Of a stretch of 64,000 bases of DNA, positions 5,869-47,513 are shown one piece after another. This stretch comes from Solirubrobacterales bacterium (GTDB taxonomy: Bacteria > Actinomycetota > Thermoleophilia > Solirubrobacterales > 70-9). The position numbers were made by a program, and so were the translations under genes. The notes beneath the pieces are model-generated. The model worked only from the letters and a program-made list of their open reading frames with translations. It was not told where the DNA came from and made no database searches. The DNA lies in assembly GCA_051954855.1 (NCBI GenBank), contig JBQCHH010000008.1, positions 18,978 to 82,977 on the forward strand, in the 5' to 3' direction. Positions within the stretch are counted from its first letter, which is position 1. Each line of letters begins with the position of its first letter.

Positions 5869-5962
5869 CTGCTGCAAGAGAAGCTCCCGACCGTAGGTTG
5901 ACCGCCGATTATAGGTCGGGCACATACCCGGTCCAGAAGGGCGCGTACCGCGCGAAAGCCAG

Positions 5963-6036
<74 letters not shown>

Positions 6037-13030: not shown

Positions 13031-13166
13031 TCGCCGCCGGCACTGCAAGAATCCCCAGCCTCCCACAGCGGCTTCCACATGCCGGAAACCGCGGCGGCAG
13101 GCCAAATCCCTCCCGCCCCCTACTTTTTCCACAAGCCCTAACCCAACTCGAGAAGGCAATCATCAG
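13031..13166. promoter_or_regulatory. Candidate oriC core: dnaA-dnaN intergenic region with three co-oriented DnaA-box-like 9-mers
   Basis: CCTCCCACA (13059-13067), GCTTCCACA (13071-13079) and TTTTCCACA (13125-13133; 8/9 to TTATCCACA). The 3' half is locally AT-richer. Confidence 0.4.
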
Positions 13167-15965: not shown

Positions 15966-18431
<2,466 letters not shown>

Positions 18432-23012: not shown

Positions 23013-23945
23013 CTAGAACGGCGCTTCGAGGAAGGTCTTGAAGTCCGGGCCCGTGAGGGGGTAGCGGGGGTCGCCGGGGAAGTTGACGCTGAGGTCGCCG
23101 GTCCAGGTGGTGCTGCCGTCGGGGGCGGCGCGGTAATGGCCGGCGCCGTGGAACGGAGCCGGAGGTGAGAGATCGGCGGCGGTGGCGGCTTCGTTGACGT
23201 GGAACGCTTTATGAGGGTCGGCGAAGGCGGCCCTGATGATCGCCAGCTTGCCTCGGCTTTCTTCGTGCGTCGCCAAAAGCTCTGATATCGGGCCGAATTC
23301 GAGCGCGAGGAGGCGGGTGAAGTCGACCCCGTGGCGCGACTCGGCCAGGAAGGCGGAGGGAGTCACGAAGAAAATGTTGCCGCCGCCGTTGGAATGGCGA
23401 TGGGGATGAGGGTGGGGACGCCGCGGACACCGTCCCCCCGGTTCCAGAATCCCTCCGGCAGCTCGATGGACGTGAACCGAGACGTAGCCGTTTTCTCCAC
23501 GGAAGCGGAGGCTGCCGACGAAGATGCCCTTGCGTCGAACGAGCCGGAAGGTGCCTAGGCAAACAGCGCGCTTGCTCGTTTCGTGGAAGCGCATCAGGAC
23601 CTTGCCGAAGTTGCCGAAGGTTGCCTGCAGCCGCTCCGGGGTCGCTACCCCCTTGGCGAGGTAGATGGTCTCGGCAACAGCCTCCCGATGCTGGTTGGAG
23701 ACCACGAGGGTCACCGCGCTGCCGAAGGTCGAAACCCCTACTTTGTAGCCGCCAGACGAAGGTTCCACCTGGAAGCCGGAGCGAAAAACGTGGAGAGGGG
23801 GAACGGGCGCTCCGACCTTGGTCATCAGCTTGCGCGGCGGCAGCGGCGGCAAGAGCCGTTCTTCTTCTGCGGCGTGAGCGGCGGGTGCCGCCAGCAGCGC
23901 CACTGCCAGCGCGAAAGGAATGAGGATGGTGAGCCGGAGACTCAT
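23013..23945 (-). CDS. Secreted protein of unknown function, partner Q2; paralogue of 20993..22012
   Basis: Signal peptide MSLRLTILIPFALAVALLAAPAAHA. Same conserved blocks as Q1. Contains a His-rich patch, CPRRPHPHPHRHSNGGG. ATGA overlap with the upstream protease P2. Confidence 0.7.
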   Translation of the reverse strand: MSLRLTILIPFALAVALLAAPAAHAAEEERLLPPLPPRKLMTKVGAPVPPLHVFRSGFQVEPSSGGYKVGVSTFGSAVTLVVSNQHREAVAETIYLAKGVATPERLQATFGNFGKVLMRFHETSKRAVCLGTFRLVRRKGIFVGSLRFRGENGYVSVHVHRAAGGILEPGGRCPRRPHPHPHRHSNGGGNIFFVTPSAFLAESRHGVDFTRLLALEFGPISELLATHEESRGKLAIIRAAFADPHKAFHVNEAATAADLSPPAPFHGAGHYRAAPDGSTTWTGDLSVNFPGDPRYPLTGPDFKTFLEAPF

Positions 23946-24955
23946 CTCACCTTTGCCGCTCGTCCGTAGAGTCGTGCGACTTCCTTACCGAAGTAAGCGC
24001 CGAAGTCGGGGCTGGTGTCGTCGAAATAGCCGTAGTTGGTGACGCTGTTGAGCGTGTCTCTGTCGATCGTCCAGCCGCCCCCTGAGGCGCCGCCGGTGAC
24101 TCCGCAGGCGACCGCGAGGTTGAGCGGCCCGGGGAAGAGGAAGGAGTCAGGGTCGTGGCCGATGAACGGTTCGTCGCGGCAGATCCGCTGGGTTTCCCCG
24201 TCGAACGGTTCTTCCGCCGGGTAGCCGTGGACGTCGAAGGTCTGGCGCGGCTTCAGGTTCCAGGCGATCCCGGCCCCGCCGACTGCTTCGCCGAGCGTTT
24301 CGCCGCGCTGGTTGGGGCCGACCACGGCAGCGCCGACGTCGTAGTTCTCGCTGCCGCTGCGGCGCCACTGCTTGGTCGTGTCGATCCAGCGCGCCGGGAA
24401 GACGCCGAAGGGCCGCTGCCCGTAGCGGTAGGCGGGGACGAAGACCCAGCGCTCCTTGAACCAGCGCCCGCGCGGACCGCCACTGTTGATGCAGTGGGCG
24501 GCGGTGAAGACCACGCTCTGGTTTCCGGAATGGACTGCCGTCCCCGAGCAGCGGGCGTAGCCGAAAATCCCGAAGGAGATGAAGATCGCGCCGTTGATCC
24601 GGTATTCGGGCGCCGTGGGGTCGGCCACCTGTTCGAAGCCGGATGCTTCGATCGTGAGCCGCGGCAGCTCGCCCGAGACGCGGTGCGGGCGACCGCGCAC
24701 GCCGGCCCGGGAGGCGGCAGCAGCGTCGAGGCGCGAGCGCTTGATCTCGAGCGGCTTCGCTTCCCGCATCCGCTGCGGCGTCCAGAAGGCGCCGGCTTCA
24801 CGGGCGGACAGCTGCGGCACCCAGACGCCGGCACGAGCGGGGGCGGCAGCGACGGCAACGATCGTCATGAGGAGAAGGAGCCCCGCCAGCATCGCGCCCG
24901 CGAGCGCCCGTTTCGGTCCCCCGGCCCGCGCAATCATCGGCGCAAGTCTACTCAC
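23942..24955 (-). CDS. Secreted trypsin-like serine peptidase (family S1), copy P2
   Basis: VVFTAAHC, DVGAAVVG, FDVHGYPAEEPFDGETQRIC, VTGGASGGGWTI. N-terminal signal/anchor. Confidence 0.75.
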   Translation of the reverse strand: MSRLAPMIARAGGPKRALAGAMLAGLLLLMTIVAVAAAPARAGVWVPQLSAREAGAFWTPQRMREAKPLEIKRSRLDAAAASRAGVRGRPHRVSGELPRLTIEASGFEQVADPTAPEYRINGAIFISFGIFGYARCSGTAVHSGNQSVVFTAAHCINSGGPRGRWFKERWVFVPAYRYGQRPFGVFPARWIDTTKQWRRSGSENYDVGAAVVGPNQRGETLGEAVGGAGIAWNLKPRQTFDVHGYPAEEPFDGETQRICRDEPFIGHDPDSFLFPGPLNLAVACGVTGGASGGGWTIDRDTLNSVTNYGYFDDTSPDFGAYFGKEVARLYGRAAKVR

Positions 24956-26379: not shown

Positions 26380-27414
26380 CTATTCAACCAGCAGCGTGTA
26401 AGTGGCTTCGTTGTTTTCGGTGAGGGTCTCGCCTGGCACCGGTTCGGCTTCGATTTCGAGGGTGACTTCGCCTTTCGGCGCGGGGGTGAGTGGGATCGTC
26501 GCCGTCGCTTCTTCGCCGGCGCCGATTTCTTCGATTTCGCCCTTGATCGACTTGCCTTCGACGGTGACGACGACGGTGACGCCGTTCTCGGTCGATTCGC
26601 CCTGGTTCTGAACCGTGACTTCCACTTCGACCCCTTCCGCGGCCGCGACGGGGGTGGCGCCGCCTTCGACCAGTTCGGAGCCGTTGACGCTGACCGTGCC
26701 CAGGCCGAGCCCGTGGATGCCCGGCCCCGCCGAGCCGCTGTTGCCGCTGATCGCCCCGAGGGCGCTTTCGACAGTGCGGGCTTCCAGCCATTTTTCGTCC
26801 GGCAGGAAAGAGCTTTCCGGCACGTCGTGGCCGGAGATCCCGTTCGAGGCGAGGACGTTGTCGATTTCCCCCCGCACCACCGTTTCGTAGACGACGTCGG
26901 AGGCGAGCAGCTTCTGCATCTGCCTGGCGATGCCGGCCATCGCCTTCTGCGCTCCCGCTTCGCCGAGCGCGGTGCTCATCTTTTCGGCGATCTGAGTCAT
27001 CGCGCCGGCCCGCAGCTCGTAGACGAGTTTGAGGTTGTTCTGGGCGTCCTTCATGTCGCCGGGCGCTCCCAGGCTTTCGACCCGGGAGACGTAGTTGTCC
27101 ATCGCGCTGGCGTCGGCGCTGACCTTGGCGACGAACTCGGTGACCGAGAGGTTGCCGGGGCTTTCGAGGCTGCCGAAGAAGTCTTTGCTCGTCTGTTCCG
27201 TTTCGTTGACGATCTCGGTGACCTTGTCGGCGTAGTCGCTCAGTTCCGATTCGGCACGGGCGTCGAGGCAGCCCTTGATCCCGAGCACGATCAGGATCAG
27301 GAGCAGCAGGCCACCGCCGAGGGCAAGCGCGCGCCGCAGCATGATCTGCTGGCGTTCCGGTCTGCGTTTGGGCCGCTCGCGCCGGGGCGGGCGTCGTGAG
27401 GCGAAGTCCTCCAC
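26380..27414 (-). CDS. Membrane-anchored protein with C-terminal CARDB-like domain
   Basis: Basic N-terminus plus one TM helix (LALGGGLLLLILIVLGI). C-terminal VEVEVTVQNQGES...ATATIPL...GETLTENNEATYTL resembles CARDB (E-x-N-E-x-N-N). Confidence 0.55.
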   Translation of the reverse strand: MEDFASRRPPRRERPKRRPERQQIMLRRALALGGGLLLLILIVLGIKGCLDARAESELSDYADKVTEIVNETEQTSKDFFGSLESPGNLSVTEFVAKVSADASAMDNYVSRVESLGAPGDMKDAQNNLKLVYELRAGAMTQIAEKMSTALGEAGAQKAMAGIARQMQKLLASDVVYETVVRGEIDNVLASNGISGHDVPESSFLPDEKWLEARTVESALGAISGNSGSAGPGIHGLGLGTVSVNGSELVEGGATPVAAAEGVEVEVTVQNQGESTENGVTVVVTVEGKSIKGEIEEIGAGEEATATIPLTPAPKGEVTLEIEAEPVPGETLTENNEATYTLLVE

Positions 27415-30950: not shown

Positions 30951-32278
30951 CCTCGGCCCGGAACCGGGAGCTGCTCGCCCTGGTTCCCGTCGCCCTTCTG
31001 CTTACCGCCGGCTTCGCCGCGGTCTTCTCGCAGGAGAGCGACAAACTCGGCAACCTCAGCCTCACCTACGGGGCCTATTTCTTCGCCGTCTGCCTCGCCA
31101 CCCACGTGTTCCTGCGCTTCCGGCTCCCCAACGCCGACCCGTACCTGTTCCCGCTGATGGCGACGCTGACGGCGTTCGGCTTCGTGATGATCTACCGGAT
31201 CGACGAAAGCCTGGCCCGCAACCAGGCCAACTGGTTCCTGCTCGGGCTGGTCCTCTTCGCGCTGACGATCTACTTCCTGCGCGACTACGAAGTGCTCGAG
31301 CGCTACCGCTACACGATCGCGGTCGCCGGCCTGCTGTTGCTGCTGGCGCCGCGGTTGCCGGGGATCGGCCAGCAGGTCAACGGCGCCTACCTCGGGGTGA
31401 AGCTGGGGCCGATCGCCTTCCAGCCGGCCGAGTTCACCAAGCTCGCGATCGTCGTCTTCCTCGCCAGCTACCTGCGCGAGCACCGCGAGGTGCTGATCGT
31501 CGGCGCCCGCCGGGTGCTGGGGGTGACGCTGCCGCCGCTGAAGCACTTCGGGCCGATGCTGGTGGTCTGGGGCGCTTCGATGTTCATGCTCGTCTTCATC
31601 CGCGACCTCGGCAGCTCGCTGATGTTCTTCGCCGCCTTCCTCGCCCTGCTCTACGTGGCGACCGGGCGCTTCTCCTTCGTCGTGATCGGGATGGCGATGT
31701 TCCTCCTCGGCGCCTGGTTCTTCGCCACCACCGTGCCGCACGTCCAAGAGCGGGTCGACGTCTGGCTCCACCCCTACGCCGAAGCGCAGGGCAACGGGTA
31801 CCAGATCCTGCAGTCGATCTTCGCCCAGGCCGACGGCGGCCTCTTCGGCAAAGGCTTCGGACAGGCGCTGATCACGGCGCCGGGAACGCACAGCGTGCTG
31901 CTGCCGGCCGCTGAAACCGACACGATCTACTCGCTGATCGTCAACGAGGTCGGGCTGGTCGGCGCCTGCGGGCTGATCCTCGTTTACCTGCTGATCACCG
32001 CCCGCGGCTTCAAAGTCGCGCTGCTGGCGAACGACGGCTTCTCGAAGCTGCTGGCGACGGGCCTGACCGCGGTCTTCGCGATCCAGGCTTTCGTGATCAT
32101 CGGCGGCGTAACCAGGGTGATCCCGCTGACCGGCGTCACCCTGCCCTTCATCAGCTACGGCGGCAGCTCGATCGTCGCCAACTTCGTGCTGCTGGCGCTG
32201 CTCTTGCTGGTCTCCGACCGCGCCCGCCGTGAAGCGGCCGCGCCGGCCGGCCGCGCGGCGTTGGGGGCGGCGCTGTGA
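30947..32278 (+). CDS. rodA: SEDS-family peptidoglycan glycosyltransferase (RodA/FtsW)
   Basis: About 10 TM helices. QPAEFTKLAIVVFLA, LQSIFAQADGGLFGKGFG, ETDTIYSLIVNEVGL, IPLTGVTLPFISYGGSS. GTGA overlap with pstP. Confidence 0.9.
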   Translation: MTSARNRELLALVPVALLLTAGFAAVFSQESDKLGNLSLTYGAYFFAVCLATHVFLRFRLPNADPYLFPLMATLTAFGFVMIYRIDESLARNQANWFLLGLVLFALTIYFLRDYEVLERYRYTIAVAGLLLLLAPRLPGIGQQVNGAYLGVKLGPIAFQPAEFTKLAIVVFLASYLREHREVLIVGARRVLGVTLPPLKHFGPMLVVWGASMFMLVFIRDLGSSLMFFAAFLALLYVATGRFSFVVIGMAMFLLGAWFFATTVPHVQERVDVWLHPYAEAQGNGYQILQSIFAQADGGLFGKGFGQALITAPGTHSVLLPAAETDTIYSLIVNEVGLVGACGLILVYLLITARGFKVALLANDGFSKLLATGLTAVFAIQAFVIIGGVTRVIPLTGVTLPFISYGGSSIVANFVLLALLLLVSDRARREAAAPAGRAALGAAL

Positions 32279-33732
32279 ACCGGCAGATCGTCAAATTGTT
32301 CGCCTTCATCGTCGTCCTCTTCGCGATCCTGGTCGGCTTCACGTCCTACTGGTCGGTCTTCGACGCCAAGGCGCTGAAGGAAAAGGACGTCAACAAGCGG
32401 CCGCTGTTCGAGGCGCAGCAGATCCACCGCGGCCGCATCCTCGCCGCCGACGGCACCGTGATCGCCAAGTCGGTGGCGAAGGGACAGGGCTCCGCCAAGC
32501 GGTACGTGCGGCGTTATCCGCAAGGTGCCCTCTTCGGCCACCCGATCGGATACAGCTTCATGGAATACGGCGACTCCCAGTTCGAGCAGTTCCATAACGC
32601 CGAACTGATCGGCGAAGAATCGGAATTCGGCTCGATCCTGGAAGAAATCCTCGGTCACACGCAGGAAGGCAACGACATCGTCACCAACCTCGACACCAAA
32701 GCGCAGCAGGTGGCGCTGAGCGCGCTGGAAGCAGCGGGCTTCGGCGCCGTGGTGGCGATCGTCCCCCAGACCGGTGAAGTCAAGGTGATGGCCTCCAACG
32801 CGCCGTATGACCCGAACCGGATCCCCAGCCAAATCGAAAAGCTGAATCGCAACGAAGCCGAAACGCCGCTGCTGAACCGGGCGACGCAGGGGCAGCGGCC
32901 GCCGGGCTCGACCTTCAAGGTCGTAACCGCGGCGGCGGGTCTGGAAAACGGCGTGATCACGCCGGAAACGACGATCGACTCGCCGGGCGAAATCACCGAC
33001 GAAGGAATACCGCTGCAGAACGACTTCACCCAGAACTGGGGTTCGATCTCGCTCGACACCGCCCTGACCAACTCGGTCAACACCTTCTTCGGCCAGCTCG
33101 GCCAGAAAGTCGGCCAGGACGCGCTGTTCGAACAGATGGAAAAGTTCGGTTTCAACGCCAAGCCGCCGATCGATCTGCCCTCGACCCAGATCGAGCCCAG
33201 CGGGGTCTTCTCCGAAGGGAAGCTCCTGCACCGCAACGACCCGGTCGACCTCGCCCGCGTCGCGATCGGCCAGGAGCGGCTGCTGGCGACGCCGCTGCAG
33301 ATGGCGATGGTCGTCGCCGCGGTCGCCGACAAGGGCAAGCTGATGAAGCCGCAGATCTGGAACCGGGTGATCGAACCCGACGGGCACGTCGTCGCCCGCC
33401 TCGAACCCTCCGTCTACAGCGAACCGGTCAGCGCCAAGACCGCGGAAGAGCTGACGACGGCGATGGAAGGCGTGGTGCGGGAAGGCACCGGGACCAACGC
33501 GAACATCGAAGGCGTCCCGGTCGCCGGGAAGACCGGCACCGCGGAAACGCCGAACAACAAAGCCTGCGGCGGCGGCGAAAACGAGAACCAGGCCTGGTTC
33601 ATGGGCTTCGCCCCGGCCAACGAACCGAAGATCGCGATCGTCGCCACGGTCGAATGCACCGAACAGTTCGGCGGCGACATCGCCGCGCCGATCTTCCGTC
33701 AGGTCGCGGAAACGATCCTCAACGGGGAATGA
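32275..33732 (+). CDS. pbpA: Class B penicillin-binding protein / transpeptidase
   Basis: GSTFKVVTAAA (SxxK), LTNSVN (SxN), GKTGTAE (KTG). N-terminal TM anchor. GTGA overlap with rodA. Confidence 0.9.
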   Translation: MNRQIVKLFAFIVVLFAILVGFTSYWSVFDAKALKEKDVNKRPLFEAQQIHRGRILAADGTVIAKSVAKGQGSAKRYVRRYPQGALFGHPIGYSFMEYGDSQFEQFHNAELIGEESEFGSILEEILGHTQEGNDIVTNLDTKAQQVALSALEAAGFGAVVAIVPQTGEVKVMASNAPYDPNRIPSQIEKLNRNEAETPLLNRATQGQRPPGSTFKVVTAAAGLENGVITPETTIDSPGEITDEGIPLQNDFTQNWGSISLDTALTNSVNTFFGQLGQKVGQDALFEQMEKFGFNAKPPIDLPSTQIEPSGVFSEGKLLHRNDPVDLARVAIGQERLLATPLQMAMVVAAVADKGKLMKPQIWNRVIEPDGHVVARLEPSVYSEPVSAKTAEELTTAMEGVVREGTGTNANIEGVPVAGKTGTAETPNNKACGGGENENQAWFMGFAPANEPKIAIVATVECTEQFGGDIAAPIFRQVAETILNGE

Positions 33733-33759: not shown

Positions 33760-35676
33760 ATGTGTCCGGAAATCGGCCCGTCGGCGGCGGCATGGAGGCC
33801 GTGCGTGGCTGAGATCGCCGAGGGCAGCGTCGTCGACAACCGCTACCGGGTCCTGCGCCGGATCGGATCGGGGGGGATGGCCGACGTCTGGTTGGCCGAA
33901 GACACGCACCTGCAGCGGCAGGTGGCGCTGAAGGTCCTGCACCGCCGCTACCTCCAGGATCCGCAATTCGTCGAGCGCTTCCAGCGCGAGGCCGAGTCGG
34001 CGGCCGGGTTGCAGCACCCGAACGTGGTCGCCGTCTTCGACCGCGGCTCCGACGGCGAGGTCAACTACATCGCGATGCGCTACGTCGAGGGCCCGACGCT
34101 GAAGGAGCTGATCGACCGGGGTCTGACCCCGCCGCAGGCGGTGGCGCTGGTGCGGCAGGTGCTGGAGGCGGCCCGCTTCGCCCACCGCCACGGGATCGTC
34201 CACCGCGACCTGAAGCCGCAGAACGTGATCGTCGACGAGGAGGGCAAAGCCGTCGTCACCGATTTCGGCATCGCCCGCGCCGGCGTCTCCGACATCACCC
34301 AGACCGGCTCGGTGATGGGGACGCCGCACTACCTCTCGCCCGAGCAGGCGCAGGGGCACGACGTCACCTCGGTCTCCGACCTCTACTCGATCGGGGTGAT
34401 CCTCTACGAGGCGCTGACCGGGCGGGTCCCGTTCGAGGGCGAAAGCGCGGTGGCGGTGGCGATGAAACAGGTCTCGCAGACGCCGCAGCGGCCGAGCTCG
34501 ATCAACCCGCAGGTCTCGCCGGCGCTCGACGCGGTAGTGATGCGGGCGCTGGAGAAGGAGCCCGGCAACCGCTTCCAGAGCGCGGACGCGTTCATCGCCG
34601 CCCTCGACGCGGCGATGAAAGACCCGGGGGTCAGCCGCGACACCGCCGCGATGGCGCCGCTGCCGCCGGTGGTCGCCGCGCCGGTAGAGGAGGAGGTGCC
34701 GCCGGAGGAAGACCGCAGACGCAACTGGTGGCTGTGGGCGCTGCTTGTCGCGGCGATCGCGATCGGCATCCTCGCCGGCCTGGCGCTGACCCGCGACACG
34801 ACGACGAAGGTGCCGAACGTGACCGGGATCCCGCTCAATGTCGCCGTCAACCTGCTGCAGCAGGACGGGTTCCAGGTCGGTGAAGTGACCCGGGTCGAAC
34901 GCCAGGCGCCGGCCAACGAAGTGCTCGAGCAGGAACCGGCGGCCTCGCCGCCGCAGGCGGACATGAACTGCGCCTTCCTCACCTTCTTCTGCTCGAAGCC
35001 CGCCGTCGACCTCACCGTCAGCGCTGGGCCCGGCCAGGAAAAAGTTCCTTCGGTGGCGGGCAAGACGCAGGCGGAAGCGACGAAGGAACTGGAAGCAGTC
35101 GGGTTCAAGGTCGCCGTGCAGAGGGTCAACTCGGACCAGGTCGAAGAAGGATTGGTAACCCACTCCGAGCCGGGCGGCGGCACGACCGCGACCAAGGGCT
35201 CGACCGTCACCCTCTTCGTCTCACAGGGGCCGAAGCTGGTGAAGGTGCCGGTGATCGTCGGCAATCAGCGGTCCGAGGCGGTTGAAGCGATCCGCTCGCG
35301 CGGGCTCACGCCCAGCGTCAGCGAAGAAGAAGACGCGGCGCCGAAAGGCCGGGTGATCCGCCAGTCGCCCGGCGCCGGCACGTCGGTCGAACCGGGTTCG
35401 ACGGTGACGATCGTCGTCTCCAGCGGCGAAGAAGAACAGCAGGCGAAGGTGCCGGGCGTGATCGGCAAGGAACGCCGCGCAGCGGTGGAAGCGATCCGCG
35501 CTGCCGGCCTCAAACCGGTGGTCGAAGAAGAAGAAACCGAAGTGCCGAGCCAGGTCGGGCGCGTAACCGATCAGTTCCCGCCGCCGGGAACCGAAGCCGA
35601 ACCCGGCGCGACGGTGACGATCGTGGTCGGCAAGCGGGCGGTTGAACCGGCCGAAGGAGAAGGGGTCGAAGGGTGA
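33760..35676 (+). CDS. pknB: Ser/Thr protein kinase PknB type with extracellular PASTA repeats
   Basis: IGSGGMADVWLA, ALKVL, HRDLKPQNV, DFGIA, GTPHYLSPEQ. One TM helix (WLWALLVAAIAIGILAGLAL), then repeated PASTA-like units (VP.V.G......A...L...G). The start could be GTG 33805. Confidence 0.9.
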   Translation: MCPEIGPSAAAWRPCVAEIAEGSVVDNRYRVLRRIGSGGMADVWLAEDTHLQRQVALKVLHRRYLQDPQFVERFQREAESAAGLQHPNVVAVFDRGSDGEVNYIAMRYVEGPTLKELIDRGLTPPQAVALVRQVLEAARFAHRHGIVHRDLKPQNVIVDEEGKAVVTDFGIARAGVSDITQTGSVMGTPHYLSPEQAQGHDVTSVSDLYSIGVILYEALTGRVPFEGESAVAVAMKQVSQTPQRPSSINPQVSPALDAVVMRALEKEPGNRFQSADAFIAALDAAMKDPGVSRDTAAMAPLPPVVAAPVEEEVPPEEDRRRNWWLWALLVAAIAIGILAGLALTRDTTTKVPNVTGIPLNVAVNLLQQDGFQVGEVTRVERQAPANEVLEQEPAASPPQADMNCAFLTFFCSKPAVDLTVSAGPGQEKVPSVAGKTQAEATKELEAVGFKVAVQRVNSDQVEEGLVTHSEPGGGTTATKGSTVTLFVSQGPKLVKVPVIVGNQRSEAVEAIRSRGLTPSVSEEEDAAPKGRVIRQSPGAGTSVEPGSTVTIVVSSGEEEQQAKVPGVIGKERRAAVEAIRAAGLKPVVEEEETEVPSQVGRVTDQFPPPGTEAEPGATVTIVVGKRAVEPAEGEGVEG

Positions 35677-38995: not shown

Positions 38996-39097
38996 GGCAC
39001 TACCTGAAACCTCAAGTATTCTTGATAAGTGGGAGCCTTCCTGCTACGACGAAGGCTCGTCCATGCGCCGACGCGGCGCTGAAGGAAAGGGAGAATC

Positions 39098-39697
39098 ATG
39101 AGACACCTGAAGATTGCCAGCCTTGCGGGATTGACGGCGCTGATCCTGTTGGCATTTGTTGGAGTTGCGACGGCACCGGCAACCGTCCTTTGCAAAACAG
39201 GAACCGCACCGTGCGGCGCTGGATGGACGCTAGGAGCGGGCGACACAATTGGAGCCACTCTTGAGGGCTCGTCCCATTGGGAACGGGAAGGGACTGAATT
39301 CGCCACATGCACCGAAGGGATGTTTGTGATTAAACTCGAAAACCCTGGCAGTGCCGCGGAAACAGTACACGGCATCTTCAGTAGCATATCCATAAAAAAC
39401 TGCACCAATACAGTGGACACTGTAACGAATGGGCCGATTGAAGTCCATGCTATTCCCGGAAGTTCCAATGGCACACTCACAGGCAAAGCCATATTCCGAA
39501 TGCAGTTCTTCGGAATAACTTGCACCTACGGTGGGAGTGGTGACCTTGGCACGCTCACAGCAGGATCGACGGCAACACTCGACGTTAATCTGAAGATTCC
39601 TAAGGAAGAAGGCGGCATTCTCTGTCCAAGCGAAATGGAATGGGGAGCTAGATACACGGTAACCAGCCCCCTCCCCCTCTTTGTGACTGCCTCATAA
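39098..39697 (+). CDS. Small secreted Cys-rich protein, unknown family (copy A), in a low-GC islet
   Basis: Signal peptide MRHLKIASLAGLTALILLAFVGVATA and six Cys in the mature part. A/T-ending codons (ACA, GGA, ATA, AAA, GTA, ATT) are unlike all neighbours. Paralogue of 45851..46459. SD AAGGGAGA. Confidence 0.7.
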   Translation: MRHLKIASLAGLTALILLAFVGVATAPATVLCKTGTAPCGAGWTLGAGDTIGATLEGSSHWEREGTEFATCTEGMFVIKLENPGSAAETVHGIFSSISIKNCTNTVDTVTNGPIEVHAIPGSSNGTLTGKAIFRMQFFGITCTYGGSGDLGTLTAGSTATLDVNLKIPKEEGGILCPSEMEWGARYTVTSPLPLFVTAS

Positions 39698-39711
39698 GCA
39701 GTGATTAGGAC

Positions 39712-39755
39712 CTCACCCTGTCCCGTCGTCATCTGCGGTCGCGGGACAGGGTGAG
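39712..39755. terminator. Hairpin with a 14-bp perfect stem between convergent genes
   Basis: CTCACCCTGTCCCG (39712-39725), a 16-nt loop, then CGGGACAGGGTGAG (39742-39755). Confidence 0.5.
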
Positions 39756-39768
39756 CTGACACTGAGGC

Positions 39769-41668: not shown

Positions 41669-42964
41669 CTACTGCGAGCCGTTTTCCCCGCCGCGGTATG
41701 GCCCCGGCTTCGGCCGGGGCTTGCCGCCGGGGAAGGCGAGCCGCAGGATCGTCCGCTGCACCATCCCCAGCTGCTGCATCAGGGGGCCGCTGTTGTACGG
41801 GAGGCCGTAGCGCTCACAGACGTCTTTGACCTGGGGGGCGATCTCCGCGTAGCGGGTGCTCGGCATGTCCGGGAAGAGGTGGTGCTCGACCTGGTAGCCG
41901 AGATTGCCGCTGGCGACGTGGAAGAGAGGGCTGCCCTCGATGTTGGCCGAGCCAGAGAGCTGGCGCACGTACCAGCCGCCGCGACTCTCGTTCTCGACCT
42001 CCTTCTCGGAGAAGGTGTAGGTCTGGTCGGGGAAGTGGCCGCAGAAGATGATCGCGTAGGCCCAGACGTTGCGGACGATGTTGGCGGTGGCGTTGGCCTT
42101 GGCGGTGGCGCGGAAGGTCCTGCTGCCACTGTCCAAGGCGGCTTCCACCACCGGCGCCCAGCGACTCTGTCGTCTCCGCCTCGCCCGTCCCAGGAGACCG
42201 CGCGGCTGCTTGCGCTGCCGCCTCGTCTCCACCACCGCGTCGACGGCCGTTGCCGCCAGGGCGCTGACCAGCGGCCAGGCGATGTAATCCTTGACGACCT
42301 GGCTGCGGGCCTTGCCGGCGATCCCTTTCAGCTCCCGCTTCAGCTGCGACTTCGACTTCTCCCCTTTGCGGATCGCCTCGAAGTCGAGGTCGTGCAGCGC
42401 CACGCCCCACTCGAACAGCGCCATCAGGATCAGGTTGTAGAAGGGCTGCAGGAGGTAGACCGGGTGCCAGTGCTGGGCGGGGTCGATCCGCATGATCTCG
42501 TAGCCGAGGTCCTTGTCTTTGCCGCGGATGTTGGTGTAGGTGTGGTGGACGTAGTTGTGGGAGTGCTTCCAGGCCTCGGCGGTGGAGGCGGTGTCCCAGT
42601 CCCAGGTGGAGGAGTGGATGCGCGGGTCGTTCATCCAGTCCCACTGGCCGTGCATGACGTTGTGGCCGATCTCCATGTTCTCGAGGATCTTCGCCGCCGA
42701 GAGGGCCGAGGTCCCGGCTGCCCAGAGGGCCCGGTTGCGGGAGCCGAGCAGGAGCGCGCGGCCGAGCACGGCGAGGCGCCGCTGCATCGCGATCATGCTC
42801 TCGATGTAGCGGCGGTCGCGGTCGCCGAGCTCGGCCATGACCCGGTCGCGGATAGCGTCGAACTCGCGGCCCAACTCCTCCAGTTGCTCCTCGCTGAGGT
42901 GCGCAAGCGGGCTCTCCTCATGAGTGTCGGGGGGGGGAGTGCTGGGAAGTGCCGTCGTAGTCAT
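41669..42964 (-). CDS. Membrane fatty-acyl desaturase (DesA3-like, histidine-box di-iron)
   Basis: Start MTTTALPS (ATG is the complement of 42962-42964). His boxes HNVMHGQWD, HSHNYVHHTYTN, QVEHHLFP. The ORF-track extension to 43459 overlaps the reductase gene and was rejected. Confidence 0.85.
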   Translation of the reverse strand: MTTTALPSTPPPDTHEESPLAHLSEEQLEELGREFDAIRDRVMAELGDRDRRYIESMIAMQRRLAVLGRALLLGSRNRALWAAGTSALSAAKILENMEIGHNVMHGQWDWMNDPRIHSSTWDWDTASTAEAWKHSHNYVHHTYTNIRGKDKDLGYEIMRIDPAQHWHPVYLLQPFYNLILMALFEWGVALHDLDFEAIRKGEKSKSQLKRELKGIAGKARSQVVKDYIAWPLVSALAATAVDAVVETRRQRKQPRGLLGRARRRRQSRWAPVVEAALDSGSRTFRATAKANATANIVRNVWAYAIIFCGHFPDQTYTFSEKEVENESRGGWYVRQLSGSANIEGSPLFHVASGNLGYQVEHHLFPDMPSTRYAEIAPQVKDVCERYGLPYNSGPLMQQLGMVQRTILRLAFPGGKPRPKPGPYRGGENGSQ

Positions 42965-42975
42965 CTGTTCACCTT

Positions 42976-44073
42976 TCAAAGTGCGATCGCAACGTCGCCT
43001 TCCGGCGCGTTGACACAAGTTCGGACCATTTCTCCCTCTTGCCCATAGACCTCGCCGGTCCGCAGGTCCCTTACTTCGCCGGCGCAGAGCCGGCCGATGC
43101 AGGTGTGGCAGATCCCCATCCGGCAGCCGAACGGCAACTCCGCGCCGGCTTCCTCGCCGGCCACGAGGATCGGAGTGCCGCCGTCGCATTCCGCCTCGAC
43201 CCCGCTGGAGAGAAAGCGGATCGCGCCGCCCTCTCCGGCCACCGCGCCGCCGCCGATCACCGGCTGGAAGCGCTCCATCTCCAGTAGCTCGGGGTCCCCC
43301 TCCTCGCGCCAGTGCTGGACGAGCGCGTCGAGCATCTCGCCCGGACCGGAGGCGAAGGCGTGGCGCGCTCGCCAGTCGGGGCAGAGCTCGTCGAGGTGAG
43401 CCGGCGCGACACGCCCCGCCTCGCTGGTGATGCGCAGGTGCGGCCGGTAGCCGTCGCAACGGTGGTCGAGATCACGTAGCTGCTCGCCGAAGATGACGCC
43501 CTCGACGGTGCGCGAGGAGTGGATGTGGACGACGTCGTGCATCGCTTCATCGCGGTCAAGGCTGCGCAGCATGCTCATGATCGGCGTGATGCCGCTGCCG
43601 GCGCTGATGAAGAGGAGCCGCCGCGGCGGCGGGTCGGGCAAGACGAAAGTTCCTTCGACGCCGCCGAGGCGAACGATGTCCCCCGGCCGCGCCTGCCGCA
43701 CCAGGTAGGGGGAGACGACGCCGGATTCGACCAGCTTCGGGGTGATCCCGATCAGCCCGTCGGGCCGGCCGGGATCGGTCGTCAGCGAGTAGGCGCGCCA
43801 GTGGTGGACGCCGTCGACCACCACCCCGATCCGCAGGTACTGCCCGGGCCGGTGGCCCATCCATTCGTATCCGGGGCGGATCAGGACGGTGACCGCATCC
43901 GGCGTCTCGCGCTCGATCCGCTCGATCCGGCCGCGCAGCTCCTGCGTCGACCAGAGTGGGTTGATCAGTTCGAGGTAGTCGTCGGGCAGCAGCGGCGTGA
44001 ACAGGGAGCGCACCGCGCCCAGCGCGCGACGGCGAGTCTTGGAGACGTTGGGTTTGGCGCCCTGCTCAGCCAT
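42976..44073 (-). CDS. Ferredoxin-NAD(P) reductase-type oxidoreductase with C-terminal 2Fe-2S domain (Rv3230c-like desaturase partner)
   Basis: RAYSL (FAD RxYS), GGVEG, LFISAGSGITPIMSML (NAD), CRMGICHTCIGRLCAG...C (plant-type ferredoxin cysteines). Confidence 0.85.
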   Translation of the reverse strand: MAEQGAKPNVSKTRRRALGAVRSLFTPLLPDDYLELINPLWSTQELRGRIERIERETPDAVTVLIRPGYEWMGHRPGQYLRIGVVVDGVHHWRAYSLTTDPGRPDGLIGITPKLVESGVVSPYLVRQARPGDIVRLGGVEGTFVLPDPPPRRLLFISAGSGITPIMSMLRSLDRDEAMHDVVHIHSSRTVEGVIFGEQLRDLDHRCDGYRPHLRITSEAGRVAPAHLDELCPDWRARHAFASGPGEMLDALVQHWREEGDPELLEMERFQPVIGGGAVAGEGGAIRFLSSGVEAECDGGTPILVAGEEAGAELPFGCRMGICHTCIGRLCAGEVRDLRTGEVYGQEGEMVRTCVNAPEGDVAIAL

Positions 44074-44144: not shown

Positions 44145-45671
44145 TCAGTCGATCAGCTTGACGTCGCTGATTTCCACCTGGTAGCGGCCTTCCTGATCCT
44201 GCGCCGGGGCCGCTTTGTTGAACCAGATCAAGAAGTACCGGGCGGGCGCTTCCAGGTGGAGCTCGACTTCGTTCAGCTCCTTGGCGTCGCTGACGGTGGC
44301 GACCGGTTCGCCCCAGCCCTGCAGTTCTTCCGGCGGTCCGGAGGCGGCGACGAAGATCTCCGCGTCCCAGCCGGGGGAGGGGGTGCGGATGATCATTTCC
44401 GCCGGCTTCACGGCTGACTTGGTGATGACGTAAAGACCGACGCCAGGATCGGGGCCGGTCTTGGTCCCGGCGAAGGTGGGACTGTCGTAGTGCTCGCTGC
44501 TCCAGGCGGTGCCGGTCGGATTGCCGTCGATCGCCAAGCCGATCTCTTCCGGGTCCTCTTCGCCGTCCCCCTGTGGGTCGTAGTCGGAGACGCCGGAGAG
44601 CGGGATCGGGCTGCCCTTGCCCTTGAGGGCACCGCCCCCGCCCCCGCTCTCGCCGCTGCCGATCAGCTGCACGGCCAGCAGGGCCGCGCCGGCGGCGAGG
44701 ACGAGCAGCGCGATCGCCAGCCGGGAGCGCCGGCGGCCGCCGTTGAGCTTGCGTTCGGCCGGCGGCACCGCCTCCAGCACGGTCGTCGCCTCGCCGGTCG
44801 CCGAGCCCGCCCGCGCCGCCTCGACTTCGAGCGCGGTCGCCAGGTCGGCGATCAGCTCGCCGACCTCCTGGTAGCGCTCGGTCGGGTCCTTGGCGGTCGC
44901 CCGCTCGACCGTCATCGCCGCCGCGGCCGAGAGCTCCGGCCGGCGCTGCTGGACGTCGGGCAGCTCTTCGTTGACGTGTTTCATCGCCACCCCGACCTGA
45001 CTGTCGGCGTGGAAGGGGACCTGGCCGATCAGCATCTCGTAGAGGACGACGCCGAGCGAGTAGATGTCGGAGCGCTGGTCGACCGGGTGGCCCATCGCCT
45101 GCTCGGGGGAGACGTAGTCGGTGGTGCCGAGGACGCGGCCGGTCGCGGTCATCCCGTCCTGCTCGAGCTGGCGCGAGATGCCGAAGTCGGTCAGCTTCGC
45201 CCGCCCCTCGGAGTCGATCAGCACGTTCTGCGGCTTGATGTCGCGGTGGACCATCCTGCGGGCGTGGGCGACGGTGAGCCCGCGGGCGATCTCGATCGCA
45301 TAGGCGAGCGCCTCCTGGGCGTCGAGTGCGCCGACCCGGTTGATCCGCTGCTTCAGCGTCTCTCCCTCGACGTATTCGAAGACAATGTAGGGGTGGCCGC
45401 CGTCCTCGCCGGCGTCGATCACGGCGACGACGTTGGGGTGCGAGAGCTTCGCCACCGCCCGCGCCTCCTGCCGGAAGCGCTCCAGCTGGTCGGCCTGCTC
45501 GGACATCTCCCGGTGCATCACCTTCACCGCCACCGGGCGGTCGAGCGTCGTATCCCGCGCCAGATACACGGTCGACATCCCGCCGCTGCCCAGCTTCGCC
45601 TCCAGCTTGTAGCGCCCGGAGAGCACGGTCCCGATCATCTGCGAGCTGGGGGAGGAGGCCGGGTCGGTCAC
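44145..45671 (-). CDS. Ser/Thr protein kinase with one TM helix and an unassigned ~190-aa extracellular domain
   Basis: LGSGGMSTVYLA, AVKVM, HRDIKPQNVL, DFGIS, GTTDYVSPEQ. TM helix LAIALLVLAAGAALLAV. Start uncertain: 45731 ATG, 45671 GTG or 45638 ATG. Confidence 0.8.
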   Translation of the reverse strand: MTDPASSPSSQMIGTVLSGRYKLEAKLGSGGMSTVYLARDTTLDRPVAVKVMHREMSEQADQLERFRQEARAVAKLSHPNVVAVIDAGEDGGHPYIVFEYVEGETLKQRINRVGALDAQEALAYAIEIARGLTVAHARRMVHRDIKPQNVLIDSEGRAKLTDFGISRQLEQDGMTATGRVLGTTDYVSPEQAMGHPVDQRSDIYSLGVVLYEMLIGQVPFHADSQVGVAMKHVNEELPDVQQRRPELSAAAAMTVERATAKDPTERYQEVGELIADLATALEVEAARAGSATGEATTVLEAVPPAERKLNGGRRRSRLAIALLVLAAGAALLAVQLIGSGESGGGGGALKGKGSPIPLSGVSDYDPQGDGEEDPEEIGLAIDGNPTGTAWSSEHYDSPTFAGTKTGPDPGVGLYVITKSAVKPAEMIIRTPSPGWDAEIFVAASGPPEELQGWGEPVATVSDAKELNEVELHLEAPARYFLIWFNKAAPAQDQEGRYQVEISDVKLID

Positions 45672-45850
45672 TTGCGGGACAACGTTACGACGCAGGCGGG
45701 ATGAGCGCCATTTGCAGCCATCTTCGGGCATGCATCCATGCAGAAGGATGTTTTAGGTACGCATTCGTTTTTGACTACTTCTTCTTGTGGGACTACTAAT
45801 AGAGGCAAACGATCCGGCGTCCTCAGGGCGCCGGCTAAGGGAGAGATCAA

Positions 45851-46459
45851 ATGAATTGCCTGAAGATTCTCGGGCTCGCAGCGATCGTGGCTGCGGCCCT
45901 AACGGCGCTCGCCGGAGCTGGAACTGCCGGAGCGACCGTGTTCTGCCCCACTACATCGACACCGTGCCAGTCGAAGCCGTACGAAGTGGGGACGGCAGTC
46001 GACGCAAACCTGAGTAACAAAGCAATAATTGAGAATATCTTAGGTGAAGCGTTGGTCCAGTGTACGGAAGGGACACTGAAGGGCAAACTCGCCCACGAAG
46101 GCTCCGGAACCGAAACAGTTCTCGGGACCGTCGAAAGCCTCACGTGGGGTAAATGCAACGCTGCGATTGCCACGGTGGCCGAAGGGTTCTATGAAGTTCA
46201 TAGCATCGTCAATACCGACAACGGCACAGTGACAGGCGGAAATACCGAAGTGACATTCGATATCCTCACGAACATCAGCTGCACCTATAGCGTCGAGAGA
46301 GAAGACCTCGGTACGCTCAAAGGCGGGGCCCCGGCAACCCTTGACATTAACGCAGATCTCACCAAGACGGGAGGCGGCAACCTGTGTCCCGGATTCGTGT
46401 TTTGGACAGCTGAATACAAATTCGCAGAACCACTTCCACTCTACGTCGAGTCTAAATAG
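45851..46459 (+). CDS. Small secreted Cys-rich protein, unknown family (copy B), in a low-GC islet
   Basis: Signal peptide MNCLKILGLAAIVAAALTALAGAGTAGA and six mature Cys. Aligns with copy A at ATV(L/F)C, CTEG, ETV.G, EVH, NGT.TG, (T/S)CTY, DLGTL..G..ATLD(V/I)N, LCP, PLPL(F/Y)V. Confidence 0.7.
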   Translation: MNCLKILGLAAIVAAALTALAGAGTAGATVFCPTTSTPCQSKPYEVGTAVDANLSNKAIIENILGEALVQCTEGTLKGKLAHEGSGTETVLGTVESLTWGKCNAAIATVAEGFYEVHSIVNTDNGTVTGGNTEVTFDILTNISCTYSVEREDLGTLKGGAPATLDINADLTKTGGGNLCPGFVFWTAEYKFAEPLPLYVESK

Positions 46460-46474
46460 ATAACTGACACCGGT

Positions 46475-46503
46475 ATTGCGGCCACTCGGCGGGTGGCCGC
46501 AAT
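46475..46503. terminator. Hairpin with an 11-bp perfect stem between convergent genes
   Basis: ATTGCGGCCAC-tcggcgg-GTGGCCGCAAT, followed by TAT on the plus strand. Confidence 0.5.
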
Positions 46504-46505
46504 TA

Positions 46506-47513
46506 TCAAGGGCCGACAACTTGGCGAGGACGTTCAGTGACTCGGCCGATCCGCTGCGCCGCGGGGTAATGGGTGCGGAGCAGCGTCAGCGCCGCGGCTT
46601 CGTCAGCGGCCGGGACGACGACGCAGAAGCCGCAGCCCATGTTGAAGACCTCGCGCATCTCCTCGTCGGAGACTTCGCCGCGCTCTTGGATCAGGTCGAA
46701 GATCGGGGGGATGGGGAGCGGGTCGTCGATCTCGTAGCCGACCTCGGCGGCGAGGCGGAGGAGGTTGCCGGTGCCGCCGGAGGTGATGTGGGCGAGGCCG
46801 CGGACCTCGACCTCGGAGCGCAGCAGCTCGACGATCGGCTTGACGTAGATCTCGGTCGGCTCGAGCAGGACGTCGCCGAGCGGGCGGCCGAGACGGCCTT
46901 CGGGATCGTCGCCGAGGTCGATGCCGGCGAGGGCGGAGCGGGCGAGGGTGTAGCCGTTGGAGTGGATGCCGCTGGAGGGGAGGCCGATGACGACGTCGCC
47001 GGGCTCGACCGTCGAGCCGTCGACGATCGCGTCGAGGGGGACGATCCCGAAGCAGGCGCCGGAGACGTCGACGCCGCGCACCAGCTGCCCGAGCTGGGCG
47101 AGCTCGCCGCCGGGGATCTCGATCCCGGCCAGTTCCGCCCCCCGCGCCAGGCCAATGCCGATTTCCTCGCAGACCGTCGGGTCGGCCTTCTCGATCGCGA
47201 TGTAGTCGAGCATCGCCAGCGGCTCGGCGCCGACGCAGATCACGTCGTTGACGTTCATCGCCACGCAGTCGATTCCGACCGTGTCGTAGCGGCCGAGCTC
47301 CTCGGCGACCACCAGCTTGGTCCCGACGCCATCGGTCGAGAGCGCGATCCCGGTCCGCTCGTCGATCTTGATCACGCTCGCATAGTGCCCTGGCAGCGGC
47401 ACCTGATCCGAGGGGCGCCCAAGCTTGATCGCGCCGAGGGCACGCACCAGCCCGGCCACGGCCGCATCGGCCGCTCCCTGGTCGACCCCGGCTTTCGCGT
47501 AGGCGTCGGTCAC
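46506..47513 (-). CDS. purM: Phosphoribosylformylglycinamidine cyclo-ligase (AIR synthetase)
   Basis: YAKAGVD, STDGVGTKL, TVGIDCVAMNVNDVICVGAEPLAMLDY, SSGIHSNGYTLAR, PTEIYVKP, HITSGG, FNMGCGF. Collinear with E. coli PurM as I recall it. Confidence 0.8.
   Translation of the reverse strand: MTDAYAKAGVDQGAADAAVAGLVRALGAIKLGRPSDQVPLPGHYASVIKIDERTGIALSTDGVGTKLVVAEELGRYDTVGIDCVAMNVNDVICVGAEPLAMLDYIAIEKADPTVCEEIGIGLARGAELAGIEIPGGELAQLGQLVRGVDVSGACFGIVPLDAIVDGSTVEPGDVVIGLPSSGIHSNGYTLARSALAGIDLGDDPEGRLGRPLGDVLLEPTEIYVKPIVELLRSEVEVRGLAHITSGGTGNLLRLAAEVGYEIDDPLPIPPIFDLIQERGEVSDEEMREVFNMGCGFCVVVPAADEAAALTLLRTHYPAAQRIGRVTERPRQVVGP

Follow-up and report, generated by a model that had tools for sequence, protein, structure and literature searches.

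The Vsp and Vlp proteins of Mycoplasma and the Erp and Mlp proteins of Borrelia (the latter with an 'upstream homology box') are variable surface-protein families whose genes share a 5′ region and a signal peptide, and the leaders of Escherichia coli ompA and Bacillus subtilis aprE stabilize their mRNAs through a 5′ stem-loop for which a 5′-terminal position is required. In the S-layer genes of Lactobacillus a strong promoter is combined with a 5′-untranslated region (5′-UTR) stem-loop that stabilizes the mRNA and exposes the ribosome-binding site, leading to a very abundant protein (PMC10221546). Here we examine two small related genes, termed copy A and copy B, in a stretch of 64,000 nucleotides from contig JBQCHH010000008.1 of a Solirubrobacterales metagenome-assembled genome (MAG; assembly GCA_051954855.1), hereafter called the window. 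The initial annotation of this DNA described copy B (open reading frame (ORF) 45851–46459, + strand, 202 amino acids (aa)) as the second copy of a secreted six-Cys protein in an islet of low G+C content (GC), and proposed that the two copies share a regulatory and translation-initiation region and are co-regulated, with an adjacent receptor-type Ser/Thr kinase as a candidate sensor or regulator. From the comparisons reported below, copy B is probably an autonomous, monocistronic cassette of a large multi-copy family that encodes an abundant, diversifying extracellular protein, whereas any specific function (a binding or coat module, a partner of large NHL proteins, a ligand-binding barrel) is much less probable.

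The family to which both copies belong resembles the S-layer genes (Lactobacillus slpA; PMC10221546) in its promoter and stem-loop layout, its Sec signal and an acidic product with much Thr and little Arg or Met. Unlike S-layer proteins, its members measure 18 kDa per domain, have three predicted disulfides and possess no anchoring domain; the family is without sequence or fold similarity to S-layer proteins, and its high expression is a predicted one. With the Vsp/Vlp and Erp/Mlp families it has in common a constant promoter, leader and signal peptide, a fast-diverging mature part, tandem arrays and copy-number change at one locus, but its products are not lipoproteins and the genes studied here belong to the chromosomal core, close to gyrB and gyrA. 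The likeness to the ompA and aprE leaders consists of a short, stable 5′-UTR hairpin upstream of an accessible, strong Shine-Dalgarno sequence, with the difference that a 5′-terminal placement of the family hairpin would depend on the start of transcription and that the hairpin belongs to no Rfam family. No paper on this family was found in the literature, and the family, its fold, the leader hairpin and the codon signature appear undescribed; secreted families that are restricted to one lineage, occur in many copies, evolve fast and have a conserved 5′ module are nevertheless a familiar kind.

The window has a GC of 68.6%, compared with 55% in the islet at 45672–46505 that holds copy B, and the local counts given in the initial annotation (26 G+C of 60 at 45721–45780 and 30 of 60 at 46201–46260) are exact. 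Copy B is present as described there and is a full-length paralogue of copy A, with 41% identity and with the signal peptide, the six mature Cys residues and all of the quoted sequence blocks conserved. A tblastn comparison inside the window relates the two at E 5e-32 and, judged from these alignments, the protein paralogy is far beyond chance; no third family copy was found within the 64 kb. The two genes are old paralogues (synonymous divergence, dS, ~1.3), and the nearest relative of copy A among the collected sequences has 42–45% identity. Both were deposited as 'hypothetical protein' of a Solirubrobacterales MAG, under MGN6274569.1 (ACTHNP_01400) and MGN6274562.1 (ACTHNP_01365).

An exhaustive profile search of 1.84 billion cluster representatives (clustered at 50% identity) returned 3,268 clusters at E ≤ 1e-3, 730 of which remained at E ≤ 1e-30. 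A word-indexed search with copy B alone gave only 15 relatives, a result that we attribute to limited sensitivity because the exhaustive profile search found thousands of clusters. Proteins recovered by the profile contain the family domain singly or in two to four tandem copies, and in a few long proteins, which represent rare fusions, it lies C-terminal to NHL and Fn3 repeats. A second profile search yielded 342 proteins; the named ones among the best 120 are all hypothetical and come from Solirubrobacterales or Actinomycetota MAGs, and the family was met only in uncultured MAGs in this analysis. Further genomic copies, for which the initial annotation had advised a search, do exist, as this MAG holds at least four, namely A, B and two more among the 120 best listed of the 342. 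A degenerate DNA pattern over the signal peptide, which favours canonical signal peptides, was run against a one-genome-per-species collection and matched 45 stretches, ~39 of them in Solirubrobacterales or Actinomycetota MAGs with family genes, in some cases as tandem arrays of two or three; ~6 were chance matches (Bacteroidota, Holophaga and others). Six of the pattern-matched stretches, with about ten family genes, belong to the single MAG bin059.

Searches against established collections placed the family in no named group. No Pfam-A match was obtained at E ≤ 0.01 for A, B or the multi-domain members, the sole NCBIfam match was a chance one of 14 bits, PHROGs and PADLOC gave no match for the small proteins, and a PDB sequence-profile search returned nothing below E 0.4. 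None of the viral contigs matched the small family proteins, and the phage and defence searches were negative too. One family member, P0167, carries the JGI name 'cytoskeletal protein CcmA (bactofilin family)'; with no recorded bactofilin domain, it looks mis-annotated.

Both leaders carry GGCGC...AAGGGAGA...ATG, and codons 4–6 read CTGAAGATT in A and B alike, as the initial annotation had noted. As a pair, however, the leaders are not more similar in nucleotide sequence than expected by chance: the local alignment score for 150 nt upstream was 12 against 9.7 ± 1.5, and it was reached by 122 of 1000 dinucleotide shuffles. The significant leader signal is the family-wide architecture and not the A–B pair. 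The proposed shared regulatory and initiation region therefore stands in so far as a promoter-like region, a hairpin and a Shine-Dalgarno sequence occur in both copies, but these are a property of the family at large and nothing special to the pair; co-regulation of A and B is plausible only loosely, both carrying the general expression module of the family.

The predicted promoter of family genes has a TTGACT-type −35 and a TGnTAnnAC-type −10 element; in many members it takes the form (gtt)cTTGACTa, a spacer of 17–18 nt and tGnTA(G/C)GAC, and nearly all family leaders contain AAGGAGA or AAGGGAGA followed by 5–7 nt to the ATG (Table 1 gives the elements of both copies). A stem of at least 5 bp was found in 57 of 59 non-identical family leaders, as compared with an average of 29.8 and a maximum of 38 in shuffles, and a stem of at least 6 bp in 43 of the 59 (shuffles: average 11.9, maximum 21); relative to the ATG, the median position of its 3′ end is −17 (interquartile range −20 to −15). 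RNAalifold gave no structure on a MAFFT alignment of the leaders, in which the stems were misaligned, and the helix was imposed by hand and checked by shuffles, slid controls and a leave-out model. Pairing in the leader alignment amounts to 86% of cells, as against 74.6% in shuffles (reached by 0 of 500), double-sided changes occur at 7 of 7 hairpin base pairs, and pairing falls to 31–45% when the partner is slid by 1–3 columns. A covariance model search over 436 kb of loci produced 37 matches at E ≤ 0.1, every one of which precedes a family gene.

Model R1, whose training set included the copy A leader, scored the B leader at 30.5 bits and the A leader at 18.2 bits, and the leave-out model R2, built without window sequence or B orthologues, scored the B leader at 28.7 bits (E 2.9e-7), its only significant match in the 64 kb. 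By these scores copy B fits a structured, family-specific 5′-UTR element strongly, whereas copy A has the hairpin and fails the leave-out model; copy B is a typical member of the family and copy A a divergent one that keeps the hairpin and the Shine-Dalgarno sequence. Rfam 15 returned nothing at E ≤ 1 in 45650–46550. The family stem, with its loose CCGGCGC/GCGCCGG consensus, could still be a protein-binding palindrome. A blastn alignment of the window to the orthologous locus L001 is interrupted over 45694–45826, and its flanks are ~88% identical.

The 11-bp perfect hairpin reported 3′ of copy B is real (arms 46475–46485 and 46493–46503) and probably serves as terminator for both copy B and the convergent AIRS-family gene, which ends at 46506. 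Across the family, a stem of at least 8 bp lies within 70 nt of the stop codon in 36 of 55 genes, where shuffles average 8.3 and reach a maximum of 14. The 3′ hairpins of A and B were not called by an intrinsic-terminator scan and no T-run follows them; in Actinobacteria, a hairpin that lacks a U-tract is commonly regarded as a terminator. In tandem arrays (L017 4540–4630 and 5250–5340; L037 2800–3570) consecutive family genes are separated by one long GC hairpin, such as GGCGGCCGCCCC-CCTAA-GGGGCGGCCGCC, which seems to act both as a terminator for the preceding gene and as the leader hairpin for the following one. With a predicted promoter, a leader and a 3′ hairpin of its own, each family gene thus constitutes a self-contained transcription unit.

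Rule-based reading of the copy B N terminus finds the features of a Sec type I signal, namely a positive n-region, a hydrophobic core of ~19 residues and an AxA motif. The sequence runs MNCLK, ILGLAAIVAAALTALAGAG and TAGA/T in copy B, with the slash marking the predicted junction, and MRHLK...TAPA/T in copy A; the family form is MK.LK, a hydrophobic core of ~19 residues and ASA/TVLC, and the position of the junction is fixed in most members. In the first AlphaFold model of B the predicted local distance difference test score (pLDDT) is below 50 for residues 1–25, with a helix at 7–20. Within the protein, conservation is highest in the 28-residue signal peptide (mean top-residue frequency 0.79, as against 0.52 for the mature part), and since its codons vary synonymously, it is the peptide that is conserved and not the DNA. 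A bacterial lipoprotein was rejected, as the Cys is preceded by Leu or Phe (T-V-L or T-V-F) and never by G, A or S; a lipobox is also opposed by the VLC motif opening internal repeats that have no preceding signal peptide. Double-glycine leader and pilin-type signals were likewise rejected from the sequence.

For the mature domain, an AlphaFold2 model built on 111 sequences (pLDDT 97.3, predicted template-modelling score (pTM) 0.91) is all-beta with 14 strands, four of them long. The domain is acidic (median pI 4.9) and contains 17% Thr, 12% Gly and 0.9% Arg; of 181 single-domain members, 137 have exactly six Cys residues and 35 have eight. Foldseek searches against the PDB (with two models) and the BFVD viral models gave no match at E ≤ 1e-3, the best E values being 0.075 (PDB) and 0.02 (viral) and the template-modelling (TM) score in the PDB reaching at most 0.46; that the domain has no structural relative is a statement that covers the PDB and viral models only.

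These weak likenesses raise the question of whether the proteins are soluble ligand-binding beta-barrels in the manner of avidin or lipocalins, with paralogues diversifying for different small molecules. The best of them are streptavidin, DynF, OmpW, OmpA and a lipocalin, and streptavidin, DynF and the OmpW/OmpA transmembrane domain share with the family an all-antiparallel beta meander of similar size. A binding role would also suit the secreted, disulfide-stabilized, multi-copy products, the polar residues conserved in the family (E115, H117, N124, Y146 and D152) and the position of copy A beside a Peripla_BP_2 gene. However, all matches have E ≥ 0.075, TM scores of 0.30–0.46, a root-mean-square deviation of ~9 Å and 8–16% identity, and represent no real fold match. 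Unlike those barrels, the family is soluble in character (grand average of hydropathy ~0), disulfide-bonded and arranged in tandem strings; the strings of 2–4 domains and the NHL/Fn3 fusion suit adhesion or structural modules better, and the position of copy A is an insertion/deletion polymorphism, not a conserved context. Membership in the avidin/streptavidin or lipocalin-type barrels was accordingly rejected, the best E of 0.075 and best TM of 0.46 having been obtained with the pLDDT-97 model and the first model behaving alike, and we regard a ligand-binding barrel as quite unlikely.

A further property of the family is its codon usage. The GC at third codon positions (GC3) is 0.53 in A and 0.62 in B, compared with 0.77–0.92 in the flanking genes, and the same holds in every locus examined, with family genes at 0.53–0.69, flanks at 0.75–0.94 and medians of 0.68 and 0.89 (63 genes). 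Third-position A accounts for 21.7% in the family versus 6.3%, and third-position T for 11.9% versus 6.5%. In the mature part ACA makes up 30% of the Thr codons, AAA 78% of the Lys codons and GAA 88% of the Glu codons, where neighbouring genes have 1%, 21% and 28%, respectively; in A and B together ACA is used for 17 of 53 Thr codons, and nearly all other ORFs in the window are without it. Codon choice in the signal peptide comes nearer to that of the host (GC3 0.79 against 0.68, p 4e-9). The low GC of the islet is thus due to A-ending codons that the host otherwise avoids.

GAA preference alone is not unique to the family, whereas the use of ACA is. Several high-GC3 ORFs of the window take GAA for 70–85% of Glu codons while most others prefer GAG; they include 23013–24955 (−), 26380–27414 (−) and 32275–33732 (+), and comprise a CARDB-domain protein, two proteins without a Pfam match and a penicillin-binding protein (PBP). 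Rare-codon control of developmental genes is exerted in Streptomyces by the bldA tRNA through TTA codons, and as in that system the family consists of high-GC actinobacterial genes loaded with codons almost absent elsewhere; in contrast to it, the codons are ACA, AAA and GAA and occur many times per gene rather than once. Candidate causes of the bias are selection for an A-rich, weakly folded mRNA and dependence on rare tRNAs.

The description of the locus as a low-GC islet had implied that it might be foreign, and recently acquired DNA that kept the GC of its donor would indeed explain the contrast in GC3 between A and B and the genes around them. Copy A could be cited in the same sense, as it is without a close relative and is missing from the corresponding site in L001 and L002, where the interval between the Peripla_BP_2 and GDSL lipase genes is empty. 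(The copy A unit lies antisense between two co-directional genes, the GDSL lipase and then Peripla_BP_2.) However, in four relatives the slot between the kinase and AIRS genes is likewise occupied by orthologues of B, whose GC3 is just as low (0.58–0.60) despite a protein identity of 65–69%, and that diverged syntenic orthologues keep the bias argues that recent transfer is not the explanation. The bias recurs in family genes of ~40 other genomes, the named members come from one order, and what is elevated is third-position A and not generic AT richness. Neither a repeat nor a mobility gene was found at the borders of copy A; around both copies there was no integrase, transposase, adjacent tRNA, attachment-site border or target duplication; and no viral contigs or phage families were involved. 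The foreign-islet reading was not upheld, low GC3 being common to the syntenic orthologues, and recent acquisition is very unlikely. The persistent A-ending excess in vertically inherited genes means that a low-GC islet need not indicate recent transfer, which matters for island prediction.

Relative to three syntenic orthologues, copy B shows a non-synonymous divergence (dN) of 0.23–0.24, a dS of 0.39–0.46 and a dN/dS of 0.51–0.60, as compared with a dN of 0.01–0.09 and a dN/dS of 0.06–0.21 for the flanking kinase, AIRS, BacA and reductase genes (0.11–0.17 for the kinase). Non-synonymous evolution of the mature part is 5–20 times that of the flanking genes, and the dS of B is also raised 1.5–2 fold. 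Such values, together with a codon usage that departs from that of the host, could also be produced by decaying or weakly expressed paralogues under relaxed constraint, with their composition set by mutation pressure. All copies examined are nevertheless intact ORFs with conserved Cys residues in the numbers given above, their promoter, hairpin, Shine-Dalgarno sequence and signal peptide are strongly conserved, and the very confident fold prediction implies a strong coevolution signal. The codon shift is moreover directional, as ACA far exceeds ACT even though ACC is the common ancestor codon, and as AAA and GAA stand at 78–88% and not at ~50%. Under AT-biased decay ACT would be expected to outnumber ACA, and AAA and GAA would not have risen to 80–90%; simple decay is therefore disfavoured, and we consider it highly improbable.

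For copy B as an autonomous cassette that encodes an abundant, diversifying extracellular protein, the following mechanism can be put forward. The near-consensus promoter would drive strong transcription of family genes, the 5′ stem-loop would stabilize expression while leaving the ribosome-binding site free, and the A-rich, weakly structured coding region may aid strong, stable expression. The Sec-type signal peptide would export the acidic mature domain of ~18 kDa, so that the products would be abundant extracellular or envelope-associated proteins, stabilized by three disulfides, with exposed surfaces presumably under diversifying pressure, as in a binding, coat or adhesion module.

Several points weigh against this proposal. 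The secretion call rests on sequence rules, and as no recognisable wall or membrane anchor is present in the protein, its 'surface' placement is something we infer. A strict sigma-70 consensus scan found no site, and the promoter, the transcription start and high expression are to be read as predictions. The alignment used for covariation was fitted to the structure, which favours pairing, and the leader of copy A was not recovered by the leave-out model R2. A whole-gene dN/dS below 1 is compatible with merely relaxed constraint, and rare A-ending codons normally argue against codon-optimised high expression.

The divergent arrangement of copy B and the kinase was confirmed, with a spacer of 179 bp if GTG 45671 is the start of the kinase; ATG 45731 is an alternative start. 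This layout is kept in L001, L002, L008 and L009, and the hairpin and Shine-Dalgarno sequence in both copies would be in keeping with a regulon of A and B under the receptor kinase, which would sense an external cue and act through the shared leader. A role of the kinase as sensor or regulator was nonetheless not borne out. The adjacency recurs only in those four loci, which are close relatives having the whole region in common and hence uninformative: L001 aligns to the window over the whole 13-kb region at ~88% DNA identity, L001 and L002 have the order kinase, family gene, AIRS gene, BacA as in the window, and the flanking genes of L008 and L009 are those of the window at 91–97% amino-acid identity. 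Within the kinase–AIRS slot the content differs, two tandem family copies being found in L008 and a 557-aa three-domain gene plus one copy in L009.

The adjacency thus reflects the inherited synteny of a small clade and carries no information on function. Copy A has no adjoining kinase, nor have nearly all other family genes: the 124 neighbours at ~40 other loci contain 112 Pfam families, mostly from ordinary housekeeping genes, none of which occurs more than six times or is enriched, and Pkinase is absent from the 25 most frequent. Furthermore, the kinase evolves slowly and copy B fast, the similarity between the A and B leaders does not exceed chance, and a kinase of the Hanks type does not itself act by binding DNA or RNA. 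The kinase appears to be a neighbour by descent and not a dedicated regulator, and its control over an A–B regulon is very improbable. The same protein matches the PADLOC PD-T4-6 defence-kinase models at E 8e-133, which is probably generic Hanks similarity because the kinase is syntenic, slowly evolving and located among housekeeping genes. Adjoining the kinase is a pair of genes for a fatty-acid desaturase and a ferredoxin/FAD/NAD reductase (41669–44073, −), which is conserved in L001 and L002; the reductase is also found in L009.

In seven loci (L005, L010, L017, L025, L033, L040 and L055) family genes lie directly beside one or both of two large secreted proteins, the first of ~1100 aa with weak NHL/SBBP and Fn3 signatures and the second of ~890 aa and unmatched in Pfam, NCBIfam and the PDB; the two are 40–78% identical between loci. 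This juxtaposition, which includes five family genes in a row after the large-protein pair in L055, and the rare proteins in which NHL and Fn3 regions are followed at the C terminus by a family domain point to another interpretation, in which the small proteins would be subunits or accessories of an extracellular assembly with the NHL/beta-propeller plus Fn3 protein and the ~890-aa protein, and A and B would be dispersed extra copies. The large-protein locus may be the 'home' locus of the family. Most family genes, including A and B, are however not close to such large-protein genes, and homologues of the two are absent from the window; no sortase, usher or secretion ATPase occurs among the neighbours, and the family domain was not detected in the large proteins, for which PDB sequence searches were uninformative. 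We consider an assembly of this kind unlikely.

A still broader interpretation would unite these features in an undescribed extracellular system, with a new beta fold, a dedicated near-invariant signal, a new cis-acting RNA hairpin, host-atypical A-ending codons and a hypervariable coat or binding layer; we regard it as doubtful. If it held, the A-ending codons would prevent structure in the mRNA or make translation dependent on rare tRNAs, and the coat, possibly built with the two large proteins, would diversify under phage, predator or competitor pressure.

Solirubrobacterales belong to the Actinomycetota that are common in soil. An unannotated family that runs to thousands of clusters, is present several times in a genome and has a confidently predicted fold with no solved relative represents a clear gap in protein-family databases. 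The module of promoter, hairpin, Shine-Dalgarno sequence and signal peptide illustrates how a high-GC bacterium builds an export gene, and could serve as an expression and secretion cassette. The biological weight of the family is moderate while its function stays unassigned.

Table 1. Positions of the two gene copies, their predicted expression elements and related features; positions refer to the window unless a locus is named.
Feature	Position	Strand	Remarks
Copy A coding sequence	39098..39697	+	199 aa, 28-residue signal, 171-aa mature domain, pI 4.8, 6 Cys
Copy A predicted promoter	39022..39050	+	TTGATA 39022–39027, 17-nt spacer, tgcTACGAC with −10 hexamer 39045–39050
Copy A 5′-UTR hairpin	39065..39079	+	GCGCCG-ACG-CGGCGC, 6 perfect G-C pairs; −11.0 kcal/mol
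Copy A Shine-Dalgarno sequence	39087..39094	+	AAGGGAGA
Copy A 3′ hairpin	39712..39755	+	14-bp stem CTCACCCTGTCCCG ... CGGGACAGGGTGAG; −32.7 kcal/mol
Whole copy A unit, insertion/deletion polymorphism	38996..39764	.	~766 bp here versus 20 bp in L001 and L002 (L001 3864–3883)
Receptor-type Ser/Thr kinase	44145..45671	−	Hanks-type, transmembrane segment, ~165-aa extracellular tail; context only
Intergenic spacer with copy B promoter and 5′ UTR	45672..45850	+	From kinase start GTG 45671 (minus strand) to copy B
Copy B predicted −35, TTGACT	45771..45776	+	(gtt)cTTGACTa lies at a corresponding distance in front of many family genes
Copy B predicted −10, TACTAAT	45794..45800	+	17 nt past the −35; L008 orthologue identical, ACTACTAAT
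Copy B 5′-UTR hairpin	45814..45834	+	CCGGCGUCC-UCA-GGGCGCCGG, 9 pairs including one G-U; UTR RNAfold −17.2 kcal/mol
Copy B Shine-Dalgarno sequence	45837..45844	+	AAGGGAGA, 6 nt before ATG
Copy B signal peptide	45851..45934	+	28 codons, MNCLKILGLAAIVAAALTALAGAGTAGA; cleavage predicted before TVFC
Copy B mature domain and stop codon	45935..46459	+	174 aa, 18.3 kDa, pI 4.5, 6 Cys, 24 Thr, 1 Arg
Copy B 3′ hairpin	46475..46503	+	ATTGCGGCCAC-(7 nt)-GTGGCCGCAAT; 11 perfect pairs, 13 with G-U; RNAfold −24.3 kcal/mol; no T-run
Large-protein locus L055	2829–8815		
Large-protein locus L005	10851–15760		
Large-protein locus L010	1–5258		
Large-protein locus L017	93–3778		
Large-protein locus L025	2130–5597		
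Large-protein locus L033	3464–6241		
Large-protein locus L040	5591–7996		

The window as a whole represents origin-proximal core genome, as evidenced by dnaN (12735–14276), gyrB (15990–18431) and gyrA (18468–20996), and by this gene content the chromosomal region around A and B is very conserved and of high dosage. It also encodes a PBP-A type transpeptidase (32275–33732) and a PASTA-domain Ser/Thr kinase (33760–35676). A dip of GC near 6000 is explained by a tRNA-Ile(GAT) gene (5962–6036, −), which is the sole tRNA and the sole match at the Rfam gathering threshold in the window.

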